Shown here: positions 499 through 58,051 of the stretch, piece after piece | How positions within the stretch are numbered: the first letter of the stretch is position 1 | Layout of the letters: every line of letters begins with the position of its first letter | Source: Gammaproteobacteria bacterium | GTDB lineage: Bacteria > Pseudomonadota > Gammaproteobacteria > SZUA-229 | Assembly (NCBI GenBank): GCA_029881275.1 | Contig: JAOUMX010000002.1 | Coordinates: 1,484 to 65,483 of the forward strand | Length of the DNA stretch: 64,000 nt | Reading direction: 5' to 3' | Program-made: the position numbers and the translations under genes | The notes under the pieces: generated by a model | Database searches by the model: none | Told to the model about the DNA's origin: nothing | Seen by the model: the letters and a program-made list of their open reading frames with translations, nothing else

Positions 499-765
499 TT
501 ACTTACCCTGAACCAGTTTATTGTAACGAATTCTTGAAAAATAACAGTTCAGAAATGTCGACGCATTAAACATGAGCCATAAAAAAACAAAGGTAAAGAT
601 ATAAGCCTTGATTCTGAACATACCCACATCCACATCCAGATTCATAACAATAGCAATATCAGCTGGATCAATAAATGAGAACAATAAAAACACCAAAGCA
701 CCGACAACCAGGGCATTTGTCCATAAAAAAGACAACATACATTTACACGTTGGACCATCACTCAT
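499..765 (-). CDS. small hypothetical membrane protein (88 aa), same strand as and upstream of hisB
   Basis: ORF with two hydrophobic segments. There is no homology I recognise, and the region is AT-rich. Confidence 0.25.
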   Translation of the reverse strand: MSDGPTCKCMLSFLWTNALVVGALVFLLFSFIDPADIAIVMNLDVDVGMFRIKAYIFTFVFLWLMFNASTFLNCYFSRIRYNKLVQGK

Positions 766-930: not shown

Positions 931-1368
931 CTATACCTGCAGCCAGAAGGTCACCGGACCATCATTTATCAGCCCTACTTTCATATCCGCACCAAAGACA
1001 CCCACTTCTACAATATTCATTTGCTGACGGCAAAGCTCGACAACCCGATTAAACCATTTTTCCCCTTCCTCGGGTGGCGCAGCAGATGAAAAGCTTGGCC
1101 GCGTGCCCTTATTAGTATCCGCAACCAGCGTAAATTGTGATACCAGCAACAGATCACCCTGTATATCTTTCAGGCTCAAATTCATTTTTCCCTGATCATC
1201 TTCAAATACCCTGTAACCCAGCAGTCGCTCTACCAGCCGACTGGCTTTAATTTCATTATCCCCTTTTTCAACACCGATCAGAACAAGTAACCCTTTTTGA
1301 ATCCTGCCAACTTCTTCTGCATTTACACGAACATTCGCCTCTGACACCCTTTGTAATAATGCAATCAT
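931..1368 (-). CDS. dtd: D-aminoacyl-tRNA deacylase
   Basis: 145 aa, carries the SQFTL motif, and length and overall similarity fit Dtd. Confidence 0.9.
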
Positions 1369-1427
1369 TCCGCCTACCCTGACACCGTATAAAAAATAAC
1401 TCTATTTAATCACCCATATAAGCCTGC

Positions 1428-1463: not shown

Positions 1464-1544
1464 ATTTATCCCTACGTATAAACGTAGAAACCGCTTATGG
1501 CAACCCCGCTTTGACACGACCATAATACAGACATGGAATATGGA

Positions 1545-1730
1545 CTTGGCCTGACATGGACACAAGGACAGTATAGGAAGTAGCTGACACGGACTCAAAT
1601 GGACAGAAATGGATAGTACATACTATTCAGGAAGAATAAGGGACCTACAGGAAAAAAGCTACAGCGCCAAAACTCAATCACCAAGGGCAAAGGATGCTCA
1701 AACCCCGGTAAGGATTACCGGGGTTTTTTT
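1545..1730 (+). ncRNA. candidate CsrB/RsmY/RsmZ-family sRNA that would sequester CsrA/RsmA; the 5' end is approximate
   Basis: The gap has no ORF of 60 aa or more. It carries about 13 GGA/AGGA/ANGGA motifs (catGGAata, atGGActt, catGGAcac, aAGGAc, tAGGAag, cGGAct, atGGAca, atGGAtag, cAGGAag, AGGGAcc, cAGGAaa, aAGGAtg). The terminator hairpin CCCCGGTAAGGATTACCGGGG has GGA in its loop and is followed by a T7 run. A possible -35 TTGACA lies at 1511-1516. Confidence 0.45.
1703..1730 (+). terminator. rho-independent terminator
   Basis: CCCCGGTAAGGATTACCGGGG followed by TTTTTTT. Confidence 0.8.
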
Positions 1731-1859
1731 ATGCCTTAAATAAACAGTCCAGACCCTGCTCCAGACTTTTCCTACAAACATCTAAATAATTCACTGACTT
1801 AAATAACTGAACTTTACTGATATTCGTAATAACCAAACTCAATCATACTTACTTTCAAT

Positions 1860-1965
1860 GATACAGGATGTATCATTTTTGCAAGACTCCTTGCACCTAA
1901 TGGATTAGTTACTGGTACGCCAAGGATGGCATCAACCCCGGCACGGATGCCGGGGTTTGTTTTTC
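1860..1965 (+). ncRNA. second short terminator-capped element, a possible small Rsm-type paralog or a ttcA leader
   Basis: The hairpin TGATACA-GGA-TGTATCA has a GGA loop, and ccaAGGAtGG follows. The terminator CCCCGGCACGGATGCCGGGG plus a T-run also has GGA in its loop. No ORF is present. Confidence 0.25.
1936..1965 (+). terminator. rho-independent terminator
   Basis: CCCCGGCA-CGGA-TGCCGGGG followed by TTTGTTTTT. Confidence 0.7.
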
Positions 1966-2019: not shown

Positions 2020-2766
2020 ATGTCATTTATCAAACCACCAAAAACATTACTCCGCCAGGTTGGCAAGGCGATCATCGATTTTAATATGATCAATGATGGT
2101 GATCGGGTACTGCTTGGCCTTTCAGGCGGCAAGGATTCACTGTCTCTGTTACACATACTGCATCACTTCCAGAAGCATGCTCCAATTCATTTTGATCTTG
2201 CTGCCATGACTGTCGATCCCATGGCCGGTGATTTTGACCCATCACCTATGATCCCTTATCTGGAATCGCTGGGTATAGAATATCACTATCGAAAAGAACC
2301 CATCATGGACATGGCAAAAAAACACATGGGTAAACCATCTTATTGTGCATTCTGCTCACGTATTAAACGCGGCATCATGTACAGCACCGCCAGGGAACAT
2401 AATTTCAATATCATTGCACTCGCCCAGCACCTTGATGACCTGGCAGAAAGTTTTTTAATGTCTGCTTTTCATGGTGGCAAATTAAAAACCATGAAAGCTC
2501 ATTATATTAACGATGATGGCGACTTAAGAATCATACGACCACTGGTCTATGCACGCGAACGCCAGACACGCGAGTTTGCAAAAAACAGCGCATTACCTAT
2601 CATTCCTGATTCCTGCCCTGCCTGTTTTTCCATGCCAACACAACGCCAGCACATGAAAGAACTGCTTGCCCGTGAAGAAAATTTGAATCGTACACTATTT
2701 AAATCATTACTCACCACACTCAAGCCCCTGATGAGCGAAGGAAAACCTGAGCAAACTGTTTCCTGA
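2020..2766 (+). CDS. ttcA: tRNA 2-thiocytidine(32) synthetase, PP-loop ATPase
   Basis: Carries the SGGKDS PP-loop, the AIIDFNMI N-terminus and CxxC motifs. The ATG at 2020 is preferred over the TTG at 1957, which sits inside the terminator. Confidence 0.85.
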   Translation: MSFIKPPKTLLRQVGKAIIDFNMINDGDRVLLGLSGGKDSLSLLHILHHFQKHAPIHFDLAAMTVDPMAGDFDPSPMIPYLESLGIEYHYRKEPIMDMAKKHMGKPSYCAFCSRIKRGIMYSTAREHNFNIIALAQHLDDLAESFLMSAFHGGKLKTMKAHYINDDGDLRIIRPLVYARERQTREFAKNSALPIIPDSCPACFSMPTQRQHMKELLAREENLNRTLFKSLLTTLKPLMSEGKPEQTVS

Positions 2767-2781
2767 TATCATTTAACACAA

Positions 2782-3303
2782 ATGACAAGACTCTTTGAAC
2801 AATGGCCCTGGCACCCTCTATTTTTAAAACTTTATATCTTTGCGCCCATTACATTAAGCCTGCTGCTGACTGGATTCATTTACCCTTACTATCATTATTA
2901 TTCTTTTATCACCCTGATCATTATTCCAGTCGGAATATTCATTCATCACTTACAATCGACAATTGCAGAAAAAATAAAAACGCTTTTAGGCTGCATTTCC
3001 GCTCAAAATGGTCAAGCAGTTGAAGCATTGTTAATTATTGATAATAAACAATCGCCGGGCATTGTTATTCTACGTGATACCATGATTATCCTTATTCCTA
3101 TTGATGGGCGTCGCAAAAAACTGTTATTCACCGACATTAAAAATGTAACCACAACATATAATCTAGCCAATACGCTTCTTTTCTCAAAAACCGTGTTTAT
3201 GCTGGAGACTCAAAAATCTAGCCAATATATTTTTGCCGTTTCCAGATCGACAGGCACACAATGGTCTGAAAAGCTCATCAATGATGCAAGAAAACCTGCT
3301 TAA
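2782..3303 (+). CDS. hypothetical membrane protein (two TM helices plus a soluble domain)
   Basis: 173-aa ORF with a hydrophobic N-terminal half. I recognise no family. Confidence 0.45.
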   Translation: MTRLFEQWPWHPLFLKLYIFAPITLSLLLTGFIYPYYHYYSFITLIIIPVGIFIHHLQSTIAEKIKTLLGCISAQNGQAVEALLIIDNKQSPGIVILRDTMIILIPIDGRRKKLLFTDIKNVTTTYNLANTLLFSKTVFMLETQKSSQYIFAVSRSTGTQWSEKLINDARKPA

Positions 3304-4420
3304 AGTACCTCAAGGCGATTTTTTATTACACCGTCTACCACAAAGACGACGCGAATTATTACGCGCATGGGATGCCGCAGATGAATTAATACTCGATCAT
3401 ATCGCTAATGAAATTATACTTCCCCGGCATTCAAAGATATTAATAGTCAATGACAATTTTGGCGCACTCACAACAGCGCTTAATCATTTTAACCCGGTTA
3501 GCTGGTCAGATTCTTACCTTAGCCACCAGGCAACACGAAACAATCTACAGACAAATAACCTCACATTAGAAAATATTTCATTTCTAACCAGCCTTGAAAC
3601 ACCACCAGATCATTATGATTTAATTCTAATAAAAATACCCAAGACACTGGCATTACTGGAAGATCAGCTAATCAAACTACAACCCGGCATTAGCTCAGAA
3701 ACAAAAATAATCGCAGGCGGCATGATAAAGGGACTAACCCCTAATATCTGGACATTATTTGAACGCATTATCGGCCCTACCACTACTTCGCTAGCCAGAA
3801 AAAAAGCTCGCCTGATTTTTATAACACCCGATAATCAAATTGACCGTATTAATAACCCATACCCGGTTAAATACATTCTGGAAAACACTGAATATGAAAT
3901 CACCAATCATGCCAATGTATTTTCTCGGGATAGCCTGGATATTGGCACCCGTTTTTTCCTACAACATCTCCCACAGGAGCCAATAACCGGTAATATCATT
4001 GATCTAGGCTGCGGCAATGGCATTCTTGGCATCATGGCCCAGAAACTACACCCTGCAGCCAGTCTTCATTTTATTGATGAATCATATATGGCAATAGCGT
4101 CTGCAAAAGAGAACTACCGACTGGTTCACGGCTCCGCTCATACTGCATATTTTCATATTGGCGATGGTCTGGCTCAGTTTAAAGAAAAATCAGCTCATCT
4201 TATTTTATGCAACCCGCCATTCCACCAACATAATGCCATTAGCGACCACATCGCCACCGATATGTTTAAACAATCAAAAAGGGTTCTTTGTAAAGATGGT
4301 GAGCTATGGGTAATAGGCAACAGACACTTGAAATACCACCTGAACCTGAAAAAAATATTTTCTAATTACAGCGTTGTGGCCACAAACTCCAAATTCATCA
4401 TATATCGATCACTCATTTGA
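3281..4420 (+). CDS. rlmG: 23S rRNA (guanine-N2)-methyltransferase, RlmG/RsmC family
   Basis: The N-terminus LRAWDAADE aligns with RlmG, and the SAM motif GCGNG and catalytic NPPFH are present. The start is taken at the internal MMQEN. Confidence 0.7.
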   Translation: MMQENLLKVPQGDFLLHRLPQRRRELLRAWDAADELILDHIANEIILPRHSKILIVNDNFGALTTALNHFNPVSWSDSYLSHQATRNNLQTNNLTLENISFLTSLETPPDHYDLILIKIPKTLALLEDQLIKLQPGISSETKIIAGGMIKGLTPNIWTLFERIIGPTTTSLARKKARLIFITPDNQIDRINNPYPVKYILENTEYEITNHANVFSRDSLDIGTRFFLQHLPQEPITGNIIDLGCGNGILGIMAQKLHPAASLHFIDESYMAIASAKENYRLVHGSAHTAYFHIGDGLAQFKEKSAHLILCNPPFHQHNAISDHIATDMFKQSKRVLCKDGELWVIGNRHLKYHLNLKKIFSNYSVVATNSKFIIYRSLI

Positions 4421-4499: not shown

Positions 4500-5561
4500 A
4501 TGCCCTCGAACCATATAACCAGATTTCTTTTATTCTCAAGCATTTTATGTCAGAGCGCTTCTCTTTATGCTGAAGTTCAAATATCTGGATTTGCCTCTTT
4601 TATTGCAGGCAAGGTTATTAACGGTAGCGAATTTCTTGCTGATTACCCCAAGACTGGCATTTACGATAAAGACCTGTCTTTTTCACCCGACACATCAATT
4701 GGTGTACAACTCACATCCGATATAACAGAAGACTTCAGCCTTACCTTACAACTGGTCAATAATGGCGCAGATGAATATCAGACAAAATCAACCTGGGCAT
4801 ATCTGAATTATCAATATTCACCTCAAATTTCAATTCAGGCAGGTCGCAAACGACTGCCTCTATATTATTACTCTGATACATTTGACCTGGGCTACGCATA
4901 TCACTGGATCAGACCACCGGCAGACAATTACACCTGGCAAATCGCACATTACAATGGTATCAGTATTATTTTTGAACCTCGCACAACCTCTGTGGACTCA
5001 CTTTTTAATCTTTATTTTGGCAGAGAAGATTCCAGTAACAATGAATTACTGGGCATGTTTGCCGGAGCTCCGGTAAATGAGACATGGAAAAATATTGCAG
5101 GCTTTGTTGGTGAGTTTTCAAAAGACTGGTTTGAAATCAGATTAACCTATATGCGCAGCCTGCTGGACAGAGAAATTAATAACACCCAGACAGACCATAA
5201 CGTAAGGCAACACTTTCAGGGTGTCTCTATTAATCTTTACTATGACCATCTTTCATTTTTATCTGAATTTAATGCCTATGAACGACCACAAGCCGATATT
5301 AGAGTCGTTACCAACATGCAATCTATCGGTTACACTCTAAAAAGAATTACTCCCCACATTACAAGATCAGAACTTAAACAATCACAGAATAGCAACGGAG
5401 GTGATGAACACCACTCTACCAATAGTTTTGGTATACGCTGGGATTACAGAGACAACATTGCCATCAAAATTCAATATGATAAAACAATAGATAAGGGGAT
5501 AAACATCCCCATTCGCGGAAACTCAGAATTAATCTCTTTTGGTGCTGATATAATCTTCTAG
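4500..5561 (+). CDS. putative outer-membrane beta-barrel protein
   Basis: Has a signal peptide, alternating amphipathic strands and a C-terminal aromatic residue (...ADIIF). It is the first gene of an apparent three-gene operon. Confidence 0.5.
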   Translation: MPSNHITRFLLFSSILCQSASLYAEVQISGFASFIAGKVINGSEFLADYPKTGIYDKDLSFSPDTSIGVQLTSDITEDFSLTLQLVNNGADEYQTKSTWAYLNYQYSPQISIQAGRKRLPLYYYSDTFDLGYAYHWIRPPADNYTWQIAHYNGISIIFEPRTTSVDSLFNLYFGREDSSNNELLGMFAGAPVNETWKNIAGFVGEFSKDWFEIRLTYMRSLLDREINNTQTDHNVRQHFQGVSINLYYDHLSFLSEFNAYERPQADIRVVTNMQSIGYTLKRITPHITRSELKQSQNSNGGDEHHSTNSFGIRWDYRDNIAIKIQYDKTIDKGINIPIRGNSELISFGADIIF

Positions 5562-5570
5562 GCTGTCGCA

Positions 5571-6056
5571 ATGAAAAATAGACTCAAGCATCTCATAGAT
5601 CATATCAGTAATTTCAAAACAAGATGGCCACACCTGTCTATCTGGCTACTTCTATTATCTATGCTACCTATTAATAGTTACGCAGAAGATGATCATGTTT
5701 TTTTAATAACAGGATCCAGGTCTAATATATCATCCATATCAAAACACGATCTAAGAAGAATTTATCTTGGTGGAACAGCCATAAACATTCCGGAACCAAC
5801 CAACCCTATTATAAACAAGATAGATATTTCGACCTACAGGCTATTTTTAAAGAACATCATGCACATGACTGAAAACGGTTACAAAAGAAAAGTAGTCAAG
5901 CGCGTATTCAGGCAGGGAAGCGATAAAATTATTGAAATAAAGAACTTAAACGAACTCGACAACCACTTTAAAGAGCATCCTAATGACATCTGTTTTATTT
6001 CTTCAAAGCACAGTTCTCAGATGTTAAATATTAAAATCATAAAAACCCTATGGTAA
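5571..6056 (+). CDS. hypothetical periplasmic protein, a possible partner or regulator of the downstream GGDEF-EAL protein
   Basis: Has a signal peptide, is 161 aa, and its stop overlaps the next gene's start. It is loosely reminiscent of small periplasmic partners of diguanylate cyclases such as YfiR. Confidence 0.45.
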   Translation: MKNRLKHLIDHISNFKTRWPHLSIWLLLLSMLPINSYAEDDHVFLITGSRSNISSISKHDLRRIYLGGTAINIPEPTNPIINKIDISTYRLFLKNIMHMTENGYKRKVVKRVFRQGSDKIIEIKNLNELDNHFKEHPNDICFISSKHSSQMLNIKIIKTLW

Positions 6057-8071
6057 ACAGACTCATAAAACTGCTCAAGTTAAGTACCAGCAGATACATT
6101 CTGACAAGCATTGTCCTTGTTCATATCATTCTTCTGCCGTTCTTATATACAACCATGATGTACGCATACAAAAACAACACCTATGAACAGTTCGAAACTC
6201 AGACACGAGACATCGCCGGCCTTCTAACCGATGTCCTATCGACAAAATACCTGCTTGATGATTTTAAAAGCATATCGGAAACACTGGATTCAGCCATACT
6301 CAGCGGCATCATCAGTTACATTGATATCATTGGTCGTGAAGATTTTATTATTACGCCAACGATCACAACCAGTCTCACAGAAAATGATTTCAACGAGAAC
6401 AGTCAGGTCAGCAACTTTCGGGAATCCATTTTCTTTATTAAAATCCCCTTCTATTTTAAGCAGCCCGATAATATTGCCTACCATCTGAGAATCGGCTTTG
6501 ACAAATCACACCTGAACGATCAATTTATACTAGCCAGAAACTCAATTATACTAATTTTGTCTGCCTATTTTCTGATTATCATAACCATCATTGCCATCAA
6601 CACCCGATACATCTCCACCCCTTTAAGACACTTACGCAAATATTCGAACGAAATTGCCAGTGGTAATACAGATATTGAACTACAGACGCATTCGCAACTA
6701 ACCGATGTTCGCGATTTAACTTTTGACCTTGAAAAAATGCGGCTAGCTCTGGTCAACCTTGCTTTACGAATGCAACATAAAGCAACTCATGATGACCTGA
6801 CAGGACTCCCCAATCGATTCTTATTCACTGACAGACTACAGAGCACTGTTACATTATCCGCCCGAAATCAGCAATCATTTGCCATTTTACTGATTGACCT
6901 TGACCGTTTCAAAGAAATAAATGATACCCTTGGCCATAATATTGGCGACGAAGTTCTTAAAGTTCTCTCTGAAAGGATGTGCCATGGCATTCGAGAATCT
7001 GACACCTTAGCCCGCATTGGCGGTGATGAATTTGCTGTCATCCTGATTGACGTCGGACTTATTGTTGCTGAAAAAATCGCCCGCAAAATCATACAGCTTA
7101 TTGAGCCCTCTTTTTATATAAATGGTCATTCACTAAAACTTGGCGCAAGCATTGGTATTTCTATTTTCCCGGAGGATGGCAGCAATCCAGGAACACTAAT
7201 GCAAAAAGCAGATATATCCATGTATCATGCAAAAAATAACAATTTAAACATCACATCTTATCACCCAGACCTTGACTCAGATCATTATGAGAACCTCGTG
7301 CTTTCTCATAATTTGAAATCGAGCATTGATAACGGCGAATTCGAAGCCCGATTCCAGCCTAAAGTTAACATTAAAAACAAACGCCTTTCTGGTTGCGAAT
7401 TACTTCTGAGGTGGGAACACCCGGACATGGGCACAATTCTGCCTGACAAGTTTATTCCGCTCGCAGAAAAAGAAAATATGATTGGCGAATTGACACGCTG
7501 GACAATAAAACATCATGCCACACAATTTAAAAAATTAATTTCCATATACCCTGACTTTAAAATCTCCATCAACATTTCGCCCAATGACCTTCTTGATTTT
7601 TCATTATTAAATTTTATAAATGAAATTATTACCAGTGACAATCTTCCCGCATCAAATCTCTACATCGAAGTCACCGAAAATGCAATCATGAAAAATCCGG
7701 TCAGATCCGCAGAAATCCTCAACCGATTCTGTGATCTTGGCATTAAAATATCGGTTGACGACTTTGGTACAGGCTATTCTTCACTTGCCTATCTGCAAAA
7801 ATTCCCAATTTCTGAACTAAAAATTGATAAGTCATTTATTAGCAATCTCACAAAAGACTCAAACAACTACCCTATTGTTAGCGCCACCATTACTATGGCG
7901 CATGATCTTGGCATCAGTGTTGTAGCAGAAGGCGTAGAACAGGAAAGCACTCTAAAATTGTTGCGCAACCTGGATTGTGACTATGCGCAAGGCTATTATT
8001 ATGGACAGCCCCGGCACTTTGACGAGATCTTTATGTGGATTGAAAATTACAATAAAAACAAGGCTAACTAA
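6050..8071 (+). CDS. membrane sensor diguanylate cyclase/phosphodiesterase (2TM-periplasmic-HAMP-GGDEF-EAL)
   Basis: Has two TM segments flanking a periplasmic region of about 130 aa, an RIGGDEF active site with an RESD I-site, and an ELLLRW EAL-type motif with downstream EAL-domain residues. Confidence 0.85.
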   Translation: MVNRLIKLLKLSTSRYILTSIVLVHIILLPFLYTTMMYAYKNNTYEQFETQTRDIAGLLTDVLSTKYLLDDFKSISETLDSAILSGIISYIDIIGREDFIITPTITTSLTENDFNENSQVSNFRESIFFIKIPFYFKQPDNIAYHLRIGFDKSHLNDQFILARNSIILILSAYFLIIITIIAINTRYISTPLRHLRKYSNEIASGNTDIELQTHSQLTDVRDLTFDLEKMRLALVNLALRMQHKATHDDLTGLPNRFLFTDRLQSTVTLSARNQQSFAILLIDLDRFKEINDTLGHNIGDEVLKVLSERMCHGIRESDTLARIGGDEFAVILIDVGLIVAEKIARKIIQLIEPSFYINGHSLKLGASIGISIFPEDGSNPGTLMQKADISMYHAKNNNLNITSYHPDLDSDHYENLVLSHNLKSSIDNGEFEARFQPKVNIKNKRLSGCELLLRWEHPDMGTILPDKFIPLAEKENMIGELTRWTIKHHATQFKKLISIYPDFKISINISPNDLLDFSLLNFINEIITSDNLPASNLYIEVTENAIMKNPVRSAEILNRFCDLGIKISVDDFGTGYSSLAYLQKFPISELKIDKSFISNLTKDSNNYPIVSATITMAHDLGISVVAEGVEQESTLKLLRNLDCDYAQGYYYGQPRHFDEIFMWIENYNKNKAN

Positions 8072-55350: not shown

Positions 55351-55881
55351 ATGCGGACTTTGCCTAAACACATTACAAAGAAAATACTGGCAATAGGATT
55401 AATCGCCATTACCAGTAGTTGCTCAAGAGACAACACTGATCTTTATACATTTATTGAACAAACAAAATCAAAACATGTTGGTAGCGTACAACCATTACCA
55501 CAATTTAAGCCGTATAAAAACTTTACTTATTCAGCCGCTGATTTAAGAGACCCATTTGAAGCAGCTTTTGAAGAAGAAAAAGACAACGCCTCAGAATCCA
55601 GTCTACGACCTAATATTCAGCGACCAAAAGAACCACTTGAGTCATTTCCTCTGGATACTTTACGAATGGTCGGCATACTGGAGCAGAATGAACAAATTTG
55701 GGGACTAATAAAAGACCCGAACAATGTGGTTCACCGAATTCAGGCAGGTAACTACGCTGGTCAGAATGAAGGTCAAATCATATCAGTAACAGAACAACAA
55801 ATAGATCTAATTGAGATAATACCAGATGGTCTCGGTGCATACATAGAACGTGAAGCATCCCTGGCCATTGGGTCTGATTGA
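55351..55881 (+). CDS. pilP: type IV pilus assembly lipoprotein PilP
   Basis: Lipobox ITSSC and position. Confidence 0.8.
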   Translation: MRTLPKHITKKILAIGLIAITSSCSRDNTDLYTFIEQTKSKHVGSVQPLPQFKPYKNFTYSAADLRDPFEAAFEEEKDNASESSLRPNIQRPKEPLESFPLDTLRMVGILEQNEQIWGLIKDPNNVVHRIQAGNYAGQNEGQIISVTEQQIDLIEIIPDGLGAYIEREASLAIGSD

Positions 55882-55897
55882 ACATTACGGAGTCATC

Positions 55898-58051
55898 ATG
55901 AACAAGACACATCAACTGATGCAATTCATGGCAAAGAAATTATTTAAAATTTCTCTAACTATACCAGTTTTATTATTTTGCCTGAACGGTGTTGCAGCAG
56001 CAGAGCCTAATGCGATACGCGATATCACCTATAATTCTTTGCCCGGCAATAGAATACAGATTCATATCGACTTCAATCAGTCCGCAGAAAAACCTTTAAG
56101 TTTTACTATCGATAATCCTGCAAGAATTGCCTTTGATTTCAATAATACAATCAGTCAACTTGAACAGCGCAAACTACCTATCGGTCTTGGCATAGCGCAA
56201 TCGGTAACAACCGTTACCGCCAAAGAAAAAACTCGCGTTATTCTGAACCTTACCGAAACTGTTCCCTATCAAATCACAACTAATGACAAACGTGTCTCTA
56301 TTATATTAGACAGCGAAGGTACCGATACCATTAGCACGGCGAAATACGCAGACTCTCAGGGAAGATTTTCATCCGGTGAAAAAGCTGTTTCTAAAATTGA
56401 TTTTAGACGAGGCGAAAAAGGCGAAGGCCGCGTCATGATTGACTTAACAGATGCCAGCATTCCTATGGATATCACCGAGGAGTTTGGCAAGATTGTAGTG
56501 ACATTTGTAAACACCAATTTATCAAAAGAACTTCATCAACGACTGGATGTACTGGATTTCGCCACACCGGTAAAAGCTATCGACAGCTTTATTCGTGACG
56601 GCAACACACGCATAGAAATCGAAGCCAGTACACGTGACTTCGAACACCTTGCTTACCAAACCAATAAAACCTTTACTATAGAGCTTATTCCTGTATCCAA
56701 GGAAGATCTGGAAGCATTGCAAAAAGCAAAATTTGGTTACACTGGCGAACGTCTGTCATTAAATTTCCAGGACATTCCCGTTCGTGCCGTATTACAATTA
56801 ATTGCCGACTTCACCGGACTTAATGTTGTTGTCAGTGACTCAGTCGATGGCAATCTGACTTTACGTTTAAAGAATGTACCCTGGGATCAGGCATTAGCCA
56901 TCATCCTGAAAGCAAAAGGCTTATCCAAACGTGAATCAGGCAATGTTATTTTAATTGCCCCCAGCGAAGAAATTGCTGCCCAGGAAAAACTCGATCTGGA
57001 AGCACAACAACAGGTTGTTGAGCTGGCACCATTAAGAACCGCTTTCTTTACCATTAATTTTGCCAAAGTGTCAGACTTGTCTGCCTTATTTACTGCCACA
57101 GGCGGAGAAGGCGAAGAAGCATCAACAAGCATTTTATCGCCAAGAGGCAGTGCCATTACTGACCAGAGAACAAACACGATTATTATAAAAGATACGGAAG
57201 AAGTTATTTCAGAAGTAAGACGTCTGTTAACAAAACTTGATGTCCCTATTCGCCAGGTGTTAATCGAATCACGCATTGTTATCGCAACTGATGACTTTAA
57301 AAAGGAAATGGGCGTAAGATTTGGTACCAATAGTGTTTCTGCAAATGGCACTGATGGTATAAGCGCCACATCAGGCACCTTCAGCGGCACTAGCTATGTA
57401 TCAAATCAGGCGCTTGATAATCTGGTAAACACAGGCACAACCCTGCCTGCGACTCCAGCTCTTGGTACGGATCGATTAAATGTCAATATGCCTGTTACCG
57501 GTGCGGCCGGCAGTATTGCATTTACCATTTTATCCGGTGGCAATTTACTCGACCTGGAACTGTCTGCACTTCAGGCAGAAAACAATGGCGAAGTGGTTTC
57601 CAGCCCACGCGTCGTCACGTCTGACCGTCATGAAGCCTTTATCGAACAGGGTGTAGAAATACCTTATCTTTCTGCAGCTTCTAGTGGTGCCACCACGGTT
57701 GAATTCAAAAAAGCGGTACTCAGCATAAAAGTAACCCCACAAATTACACCTGATGACCGGATCATTATGGATTTACAGGTTAATAAAGATGCTGTCGGTG
57801 AAGTCTTTAGTGGCATCCCCAGCGTTGACACCCGTGAAGTTACCACACAGGTACTGGTTAACAACGGTGACACCATTGTGCTGGGCGGCATATATGAAAC
57901 CGAATCACGTGATGAACTGGACAAGGTACCATTTTTAGGCGACCTGCCCCTAATTGGCAGCCTGTTTAGACATTCACTGGAATCAATTCAAAAGCAGGAA
58001 CTGTTGATATTTGTTACGCCGAAGATTCTTAAAGAATCATTATCACTCTAA
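55898..58051 (+). CDS. pilQ: type IV pilus secretin PilQ
   Basis: Signal peptide, AMIN-like N-terminal repeats and a C-terminal secretin domain (VVVSDSVDGNLTLRLKNV...). The ATG at 55898 has a GGAG Shine-Dalgarno. Confidence 0.92.
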   Translation: MNKTHQLMQFMAKKLFKISLTIPVLLFCLNGVAAAEPNAIRDITYNSLPGNRIQIHIDFNQSAEKPLSFTIDNPARIAFDFNNTISQLEQRKLPIGLGIAQSVTTVTAKEKTRVILNLTETVPYQITTNDKRVSIILDSEGTDTISTAKYADSQGRFSSGEKAVSKIDFRRGEKGEGRVMIDLTDASIPMDITEEFGKIVVTFVNTNLSKELHQRLDVLDFATPVKAIDSFIRDGNTRIEIEASTRDFEHLAYQTNKTFTIELIPVSKEDLEALQKAKFGYTGERLSLNFQDIPVRAVLQLIADFTGLNVVVSDSVDGNLTLRLKNVPWDQALAIILKAKGLSKRESGNVILIAPSEEIAAQEKLDLEAQQQVVELAPLRTAFFTINFAKVSDLSALFTATGGEGEEASTSILSPRGSAITDQRTNTIIIKDTEEVISEVRRLLTKLDVPIRQVLIESRIVIATDDFKKEMGVRFGTNSVSANGTDGISATSGTFSGTSYVSNQALDNLVNTGTTLPATPALGTDRLNVNMPVTGAAGSIAFTILSGGNLLDLELSALQAENNGEVVSSPRVVTSDRHEAFIEQGVEIPYLSAASSGATTVEFKKAVLSIKVTPQITPDDRIIMDLQVNKDAVGEVFSGIPSVDTREVTTQVLVNNGDTIVLGGIYETESRDELDKVPFLGDLPLIGSLFRHSLESIQKQELLIFVTPKILKESLSL

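Follow-up and report, generated by a model that had tools for sequence, protein, structure and literature searches.

We analysed a 64-kb stretch of DNA, referred to in full as the window (64,000 nucleotides of contig JAOUMX010000002.1, assembly GCA_029881275.1, Gammaproteobacteria bacterium), and in it the gap between dtd and a ttcA-like gene, which are transcribed divergently and lie 651 nt apart (1369–2019). Two elements on the forward strand lie inside this gap, and the intergenic location of both was confirmed: a long GGA-rich element of about 200 nt and a short one of about 108 nt, each ending in an intrinsic terminator. A sequence-only reading of the window had proposed that the long element is a small RNA (sRNA) of the kind that sequesters CsrA/RsmA. 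Its assignment of the flanking genes was borne out by NCBIfam matches (TIGR00256 at 189.5 bits for dtd; TtcA, NF007972, as the top match of the ttcA-like gene at 228.4 bits, under the curated cutoff of 272 for that model), and its figure of about 190 nt for the interval between them was wrong; about 200 nt is the length of the element alone. The flanks and the long element are laid out as follows.

931–1368, reverse strand: dtd (D-aminoacyl-tRNA deacylase), left flank, divergent from the sRNA genes
1533–1731, forward strand: long GGA-rich sRNA gene (candidate), about 200 nt, 13 A(N)GGA; 5′ end placed from the -10 hexamer, 3′ end in the T run
1580–1662, forward strand: long-range stem GUAGCU (1580–1585) with AGCUAC (1657–1662), from RNAalifold
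1673–1683, forward strand: conserved non-GGA motif CUCAAUCACCA
1685–1699, forward strand: penultimate hairpin GGGCA-AAGGA-UGCUC, with AAGGA in the loop (minimum free energy (MFE) fold; consensus helix columns 176–179/188–192)
1700–1730, forward strand: intrinsic terminator with a 12-bp stem, a GGA loop and T7 (AAACCCCGGTAA-GGA-TTACCGGGGTTT plus T run; arms also written AAACCCCGGUAA-GGA-UUACCGGGGUUU, then T run)
2020–2766, forward strand: ttcA-like tRNA 2-thiocytidine synthetase (Pfam PF01171), right flank

The forward strand from 1533 to 1733 (201 nt) contains 13 GGA and no TCC. The GGA triplets start at 1535, 1542, 1558, 1566, 1576, 1591, 1601, 1611, 1630, 1641, 1650, 1692 and 1712, and every one of them (13/13) fits AGGA or ANGGA, in agreement with the count of about 13 such motifs claimed from the sequence alone. 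By comparison, 200-nt stretches over the window averaged 1.9 GGA and the runner-up stretch on either strand reached 8; mononucleotide shuffles of the element gave 4.7 ± 1.8 GGA, with at least 13 in 1 of 20,000. The spacing of 8–20 nt that had been claimed held for most of the motifs (7–20 nt) and failed at one gap of 42 nt (1650 to 1692), which contains the conserved motif CUCAAUCACCA. The strong rho-independent terminator with its GGA loop and T7 was found as described, with 12 pairs at 1700–1730, and no open reading frame (ORF) of at least 60 amino acids was found in the element, again as had been stated.

We then determined how far this element is conserved. Scanning species-representative genomes with ttcA as the anchor yielded 80 loci, and the best of these is 90% identical; the close ones all come from metagenome-assembled genomes (MAGs) of uncultured Gammaproteobacteria or Thiotrichaceae. 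The exact TtcA of the window was found only in metagenome assemblies (ENA ERZ27296367/6 and JGI 3300022223), and an exact-pattern scan of metagenome contigs gave 18 more loci. Sixteen loci showed 10–17 GGA per 200 nt on the same strand, 250–800 nt upstream of ttcA. A covariance model (R1) built from 11 aligned sequences (mean identity 73%) found 29 full-length members at 130–218 bits, 28 of them besides that of the window, spread over 27 further loci in relatives and metagenomes. Full-length members carry 12–17 GGA apiece, and locus L084, truncated at the 5′ end, carries 10. Across the family the positions of about 12 GGA sites are conserved, and the GGA columns are the best conserved ones (identity 0.93, compared with 0.76 elsewhere). 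Weaker R1 matches at the same place upstream of ttcA occurred in L045 (Thioalkalivibrio sulfidiphilus), L039, L066, L072, L068, L050, L038 and L032. The order dtd-(pip)-sRNA-ttcA is kept in 42 loci; in most relatives pip stands between dtd and the sRNA gene, and it is absent from the window (1369–1424) and from L001. In L003, pip (2604–3554, reverse strand) encodes a prolyl aminopeptidase (TIGR01249, 430 bits). GGA-rich peaks that L052, L054, L055 and L057 show on the minus strand upstream of ttcA were rejected as sRNAs, being coding sequence of a divergent gene.

The alignment also supports a conserved structure, made up of the long-range stem, the penultimate A(N)GGA hairpin and a terminator showing (A/C)GGA. 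Structure cells were paired in 94.9% of cases over 28 distinct sequences (34–53% in slid controls), and compensatory changes were present at six consensus pairs, values that 0 of 500 shuffles reached. The terminator itself shows compensatory changes at four pairs across the family, and in L001 a G-C pair of the long-range stem is replaced by A-U, a compensatory change seen in the pair counts. This stem encloses a region without conserved pairing that contains six GGA sites. In the consensus structure all GGA stand outside the conserved helices and two lie in hairpin loops; de novo consensus folding likewise gave a terminator with (A/C)GGA in its loop and a penultimate hairpin whose loop shows A(N)GGA. 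The non-GGA motif CUCAAUCACCA, nearly invariant across the 29 long members, is predicted to lie in a loop preceding the last GGA hairpin, and an AATCACC version recurs before that hairpin in distant Thioalkalivibrio and Chromatiales sequences.

A coding role for the region was considered and rejected. The 44-amino-acid ORF at 1609–1743 has no counterpart conserved in strand or frame among the 29 homologues, where the longest ORFs vary in strand, frame and length and no conserved ORF was found. Translation of the region, which the sequence-only reading had named as an outcome that would speak against its proposal, was therefore not borne out.

Downstream of the long element lies a second, shorter one, for which the following features were identified.

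1767–1776, forward strand: half box TTTTCCTACA upstream of the short gene; right dyad half CCTACA (1771–1776), left half not TGTAGG
1844–1849, forward strand: putative -10 hexamer CATACT of the short gene, read from the sequence
1856–1963, forward strand: short paralogous sRNA gene (candidate), about 108 nt, 4 GGA, four hairpins, fold z = -3.6
1857–1877, forward strand: hairpin 1, loop GGA within ACAGGAUGU (AAUGAUACA-GGA-UGUAUCAUU)
1880–1895, forward strand: hairpin 2, UGCAAG-ACUC-CUUGCA
1919–1930, forward strand: hairpin 3, loop AGGA, GCCA-AGGA-UGGC
1934–1957, forward strand: terminator with a CGGA loop, followed by the interrupted U tract UUUGUUUUU, which reaches 1963

The terminators of the two elements share 77% identity, R1 matches the short element at E = 4e-4, and a hidden Markov model of the short element matches, through its 3′ half, the 3′ ends of long elements in many loci. 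These results identify the short element as a paralogue of the long one that has been truncated. Of the four GGA in the short element, three lie in hairpin loops, each with an unpaired probability, P(unpaired), of 0.88–1.0 (mean over GGA 0.87), and compensatory changes are present in hairpins 1 and 2. Full-length short homologues were found only in L001, L004, L021 and L098. An R1 search found no further long copies in the window besides this short paralogue; L013, by comparison, carries two full-length tandem long copies (3330–3539 and 3650–3856) instead of a long and a short one, which indicates that sRNA copy number and type turn over by local duplication.

The position of both elements ahead of ttcA raises a further explanation, namely that the GGA-rich stretch acts in cis on ttcA as a leader or attenuator, with read-through under the control of a protein, and not a free-standing sRNA. 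The same-strand linkage to ttcA, which is kept from the clade of the window to Thioalkalivibrio, would fit such a leader, as would the second terminator, whose interrupted U tract lies 56 nt before the ttcA ATG. Against it, 290 nt separate ttcA from the 12-bp terminator and T7 that close the long element; among loci, the distance to ttcA ranges from about 90 to about 400 nt, and L013 shows that complete additional sRNA copies can be inserted. Conserved synteny is moreover normal for Csr/Rsm genes, csrC for example always standing beside yihA/yihI (PMC1488887). The gene ttcA also has a conserved -10-like element of its own: GTATCTT at 2004–2010, 9 nt before the ATG, is kept at the equivalent place in L001, L004, L006, L007 and L012, and if it is the -10 element that it looks like, ttcA would have a very short leader or none. 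We consider the leader explanation highly improbable.

The upstream region of the long gene supplied a further line of evidence in support of free-standing sRNA genes, based on the following elements.

1425–1464, no strand assigned: perfect palindrome with 19-nt arms, core TGTAGGATAAATCCTACA at 1436–1453
1471–1476, forward strand: CCTACG, putative extra half-site 17 nt downstream of the box, assigned from the register-aligned promoters of 24 loci
1521–1526, forward strand: -10 hexamer CATAAT of the long gene, from a promoter scan (ATGGCA-18-CATAAT)

The palindrome stands between divergent genes and so is not a terminator, and we propose its core TGTAGGATAAATCCTACA as a binding site for a GacA/UvrY-type response regulator. 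The exact dyad TGTAGG-N6-CCTACA occurs once in the window and once per locus in 22 independent loci (a count that leaves out L081, a second copy of the window's own contig), always 5′ of the GGA-rich element and ttcA, and its range extends out to Thioalkalivibrio. Loci with the weaker R1 matches also have the box, L072 and L039 in the form of near-variants. In L003 (3602–3643) the palindrome arms are as long as those in the window and the flanking letters differ (CCCCCATTGCCT...AGGCAATGGGGG), which indicates that palindromy is kept beyond the 18-bp core.

The arrangement downstream of the box is equally regular. Across 24 loci the elements keep one order and a fixed register: box, about 17–19 nt, half-site, -10, 6–8 nt, GGA-rich RNA. 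The equivalents of the extra half-site in relatives are CTTACA, CCTACA or CTGACA, and all close homologues carry CATAAT or CATACT 66–67 nt after the box and 6–8 nt before CATGGA. From the -10 position, transcription of the long gene would start near 1533. The promoter scan found no good -35 for this gene, as expected of an activator-dependent promoter. The short gene appears to repeat this architecture in reduced form: from the end of its half-site to the -10 there are 67 nt, exactly as many as in the long gene, where the box ends at 1453 and the -10 begins at 1521; ATCCTACA is kept at the place of the half box in L001, L004, L008 and L013, and CATACT or CATAAT stands at the place equivalent to 1844–1849 in L001, L004 and L021.

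We compared these features with the five defining sequence criteria for CsrA-regulating sRNAs given by Kulkarni et al. 2006 (PMC1488887): an intergenic location, a high density of AGGA/ANGGA, a rho-independent terminator, GGA mainly in loops or at unpaired positions, and a conserved upstream site of UvrY/GacA type. All five features are found for the dtd-ttcA elements, the rho-independent terminator twice (1700–1730 and 1934–1963). Together with the 29-member family and its covariation, this supports the architecture of a CsrA/RsmA-sequestering sRNA that had been read from the sequence. That earlier account stands for the long element; it had overlooked the upstream box, the short sRNA gene (1856–1963) and the wide conservation. 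We conclude that the dtd-ttcA gap is highly likely to contain a tandem pair of genes for CsrA/RsmA-titrating sRNAs, one long and one short, each with a promoter and a terminator of its own, and that activation of both is very probably of the Gac/Uvr type.

Several results weigh against this conclusion. The first concerns GGA exposure in the single-sequence fold of the long RNA, where only 4 of the 13 GGA are fully unpaired (7 partly paired, 2 fully paired) in the MFE structure and the ensemble is diffuse, the MFE structure making up just 0.13% of it. The mean P(unpaired) is nevertheless higher over the GGA motifs (0.63) than over all bases (0.49), so that this fold moderately supports exposure; the expectation that most motifs would be exposed on folding is borne out only in part for this single sequence. 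Secondly, no Rfam 15 family was found at gathering level in the window or in 16 related loci, and no Rfam model detects the family. RsmY (RF00195) scored 17 bits at 1616–1726 against a gathering threshold of 57; CsrB (RF00018), CsrC (RF00084), PrrB_RsmZ (RF00166) and RsmX (RF02144) were not among the matches at E ≤ 10 in 1369–2010, and the remaining matches at that level were chance ones to the terminators and the palindrome. The element is thus not a member of the Rfam Csr/Rsm sequence families, which, as far as these models can tell, also agrees with the suggestion that it would be new if its lineage lacked an annotated Csr sRNA.

Thirdly, csrA, uvrY/gacA and barA/gacS were not found in the window or in the fetched flanks of 100 loci. 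A csrA motif regular expression had no match in the window; tblastn with E. coli CsrA and UvrY against the window and all loci gave only receiver-domain matches, in L003, L015, L030 and L041; and NCBIfam/Pfam scans of the window's proteins of about 200–230 amino acids and of its large proteins found no GacA or GacS. Table S3 of Zere et al. 2015 (PMC4682653) lists Thioalkalivibrio sulfidiphilus HL-EbGr7 with CsrA = 1, BarA = 1, UvrY = 0 and FliW = 0, and likewise gives Allochromatium vinosum, Thiocystis and Thiomicrospira BarA and CsrA without a UvrY orthologue. Strain ALJ17 of T. sulfidiphilus (L045), a different strain from HL-EbGr7, is a distant member of our family, with the box and a GGA element upstream of ttcA. 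The HL-EbGr7 entry supports the view that the wider group has CsrA. With no UvrY orthologue called for T. sulfidiphilus, for Allochromatium or for Thiomicrospira, something other than a canonical GacA may be the activator. The lineages listed without UvrY, or related ones, carry the variant TGTAGG box, and the regulator may be a diverged response regulator.

These data bear directly on an alternative in which the RNAs are CsrA sponges and the regulator that binds the dyad is not a GacA/UvrY orthologue, with an input signal different from the BarA/GacS pathway. The entries of BarA = 1 and UvrY = 0 for T. sulfidiphilus, A. vinosum and Thiomicrospira crunogena favour it, although UvrY = 0 comes from a strict orthology filter and is possibly a false negative. 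The box itself can be read either way. In both half-sites its fifth base departs from all published GacA/UvrY consensus sequences, and its centre lies about 88 nt upstream of the start placed from the -10, compared with -183 in E. coli csrB. At the same time it matches the GacA box in its 18-bp length, in its 6+6+6 layout and in 5 of the 6 bases in each half-site: the upstream activating sequence for GacA in Pseudomonas, TGTAAGCATTCTCTTACA, is of the TGTAAG-N6-CTTACA type (PMC4353343), from which TGTAGG-N6-CCTACA is a single symmetric change. Moreover, some relatives have the canonical CTTACA as the extra half-site, and in E. coli csrB, whose UvrY site is TGTGAGAGATCTCTTACA, an extra TGTAGGAGA stands adjacent within the UvrY-protected region (PMC4682653). 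We regard a regulator other than a GacA/UvrY orthologue as unlikely, and Gac/Uvr-type activation of CsrA-titrating RNAs remains our preferred interpretation.

A different partner for the RNAs was also weighed. They might be structured sRNAs or decoys for another GGA- or purine-binding protein, or might base-pair with targets through CUCAAUCACCA, with CsrA titration not their main role. The strong conservation of this non-GGA motif at 1673–1683 in 29/29 members, with AATCACC in distant versions, is consistent with such a role, as are the missing csrA in the window and the lack of any matching Rfam Csr/Rsm family. However, the unit that is repeated and conserved is A(N)GGA, the CsrA recognition motif, at 12–17 copies per RNA, and the short RNA presents ACAGGAUGU in a hairpin loop, which we take to be a close match to the high-affinity CsrA ligand obtained by systematic evolution of ligands by exponential enrichment (SELEX). 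To our knowledge, no other protein needs a repeated A(N)GGA architecture. We therefore judge a partner other than CsrA to be quite improbable as the main one. A further reading is a Csr-type decoy with a non-GacA or strongly diverged regulator input and possibly a second function through CUCAAUCACCA; we give this reading only a small chance. In these lineages of sulfur oxidisers, UvrY is not found by strict orthology searches. The motif could be a turnover or base-pairing element, and a second function might lie in base-pairing, in a turnover signal or in a link to the tRNA-thiolation gene ttcA, which is adjacent in every case.

For two CsrA-titrating sRNA genes, we infer the following course of events. 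A phosphorylated GacA/UvrY-type response regulator would bind the TGTAGG-N6-CCTACA dyad, centred about 88 nt upstream of the putative start and with its extra half-site 17 nt downstream, and would activate the CATAAT promoter, which lacks a -35. In the resulting transcripts many A(N)GGA would be exposed, some in hairpin loops and others in the region without conserved pairing, and each RNA would hold several CsrA dimers. CsrA would thereby be withdrawn from GGA-containing ribosome-binding regions of its target mRNAs, and its control would be relieved or reversed.

For uncultured Gammaproteobacteria of the sulfur cycle (relatives of Thiotrichaceae, Ectothiorhodospiraceae and Chromatiales), the locus would provide a set of Csr/Rsm-type sRNA genes that is anchored. 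With R1, the diagnostic promoter signature (TGTAGG-N6-CCTACA, 67 nt, CATAAT) and the dtd-pip-sRNA-ttcA synteny as a marker, annotators could find the family in MAGs.

Other genes of the window were surveyed as well. A GGDEF-EAL protein and an AMIN-domain secretin (pilus or secretion type) are encoded at 6050–8071 and 55850–58051, both on the forward strand; elsewhere, functions of the GGDEF-EAL and secretin types are often under Csr/Rsm control. Near the locus, the ORFs at 499–765 (reverse strand) and at 2782–3303, 4500–5561 and 5571–6056 (forward strand) had no Pfam match, and that at 2782–3303 had no NCBIfam match either. The ORF at 499–765, of 88 amino acids, is called as a gene in a metagenome assembly.

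We compared the elements with known Csr/Rsm RNAs. A literature search on such sRNAs in Thiotrichales, Thioalkalivibrio or Beggiatoa, or beside ttcA, found nothing relevant. A close likeness in architecture is shared with the Pseudomonas RsmX, RsmY and RsmZ RNAs (RF02144, RF00195 and RF00166; clan CL00106), which are likewise about 110–200 nt long, with multiple A(N)GGA in loops or unpaired linkers, GGA in or beside the terminator hairpin and an 18-bp upstream activating dyad of the TGTAAG-N6-CTTACA type; several paralogues per genome arise by duplication there too (PMC7911923). The RsmY model aligns end to end over 1616–1726, at only 17 bits. The elements described here differ in having no detectable sequence homology to these RNAs except in the GGAs and terminator, a G in place of the A at position 5 of each half-site, a dtd/pip-ttcA context, 13 GGA in the long RNA, and both the CUCAAUCACCA motif and the long-range GUAGCU/AGCUAC stem.

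CsrB and CsrC of Enterobacteriaceae and Vibrio resemble the elements in their many GGA (13–22 in CsrB/CsrC; PMC6546359), in the conserved synteny of each sRNA gene, and in the 18-nt inverted repeat through which UvrY activates both, with TGTAGGAGA beside the csrB repeat (PMC4682653). CsrB is longer, however, at about 360–420 nt compared with about 200 nt for our long RNA, and the E. coli csrB dyad lies at -183, farther from the start than the centre at about 88 nt proposed here. CsrB/CsrC also form a regular series of stem-loops, whereas most GGA of the long RNA lie in a region without conserved hairpins.

The LetA box of Legionella pneumophila presumably differs from the box in the window. 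In this gammaproteobacterium, which is neither enteric nor a pseudomonad, several short GGA-containing sRNAs (RsmX, RsmY and RsmZ) are controlled by the GacA orthologue LetA and sequester CsrA (PMC5338858), as we propose for the dtd-ttcA elements; host lineage and gene context differ, and the comparison does not extend to the sequences. Zere et al. 2015 proposed that BarA-UvrY-type systems drive the transcription of CsrA antagonists throughout the Gammaproteobacteria (PMC4682653), and the locus fits and supports this proposal. The family is a new, uncatalogued and conserved sequence family of a known kind, and the mechanism proposed for it is the one already known from these systems.

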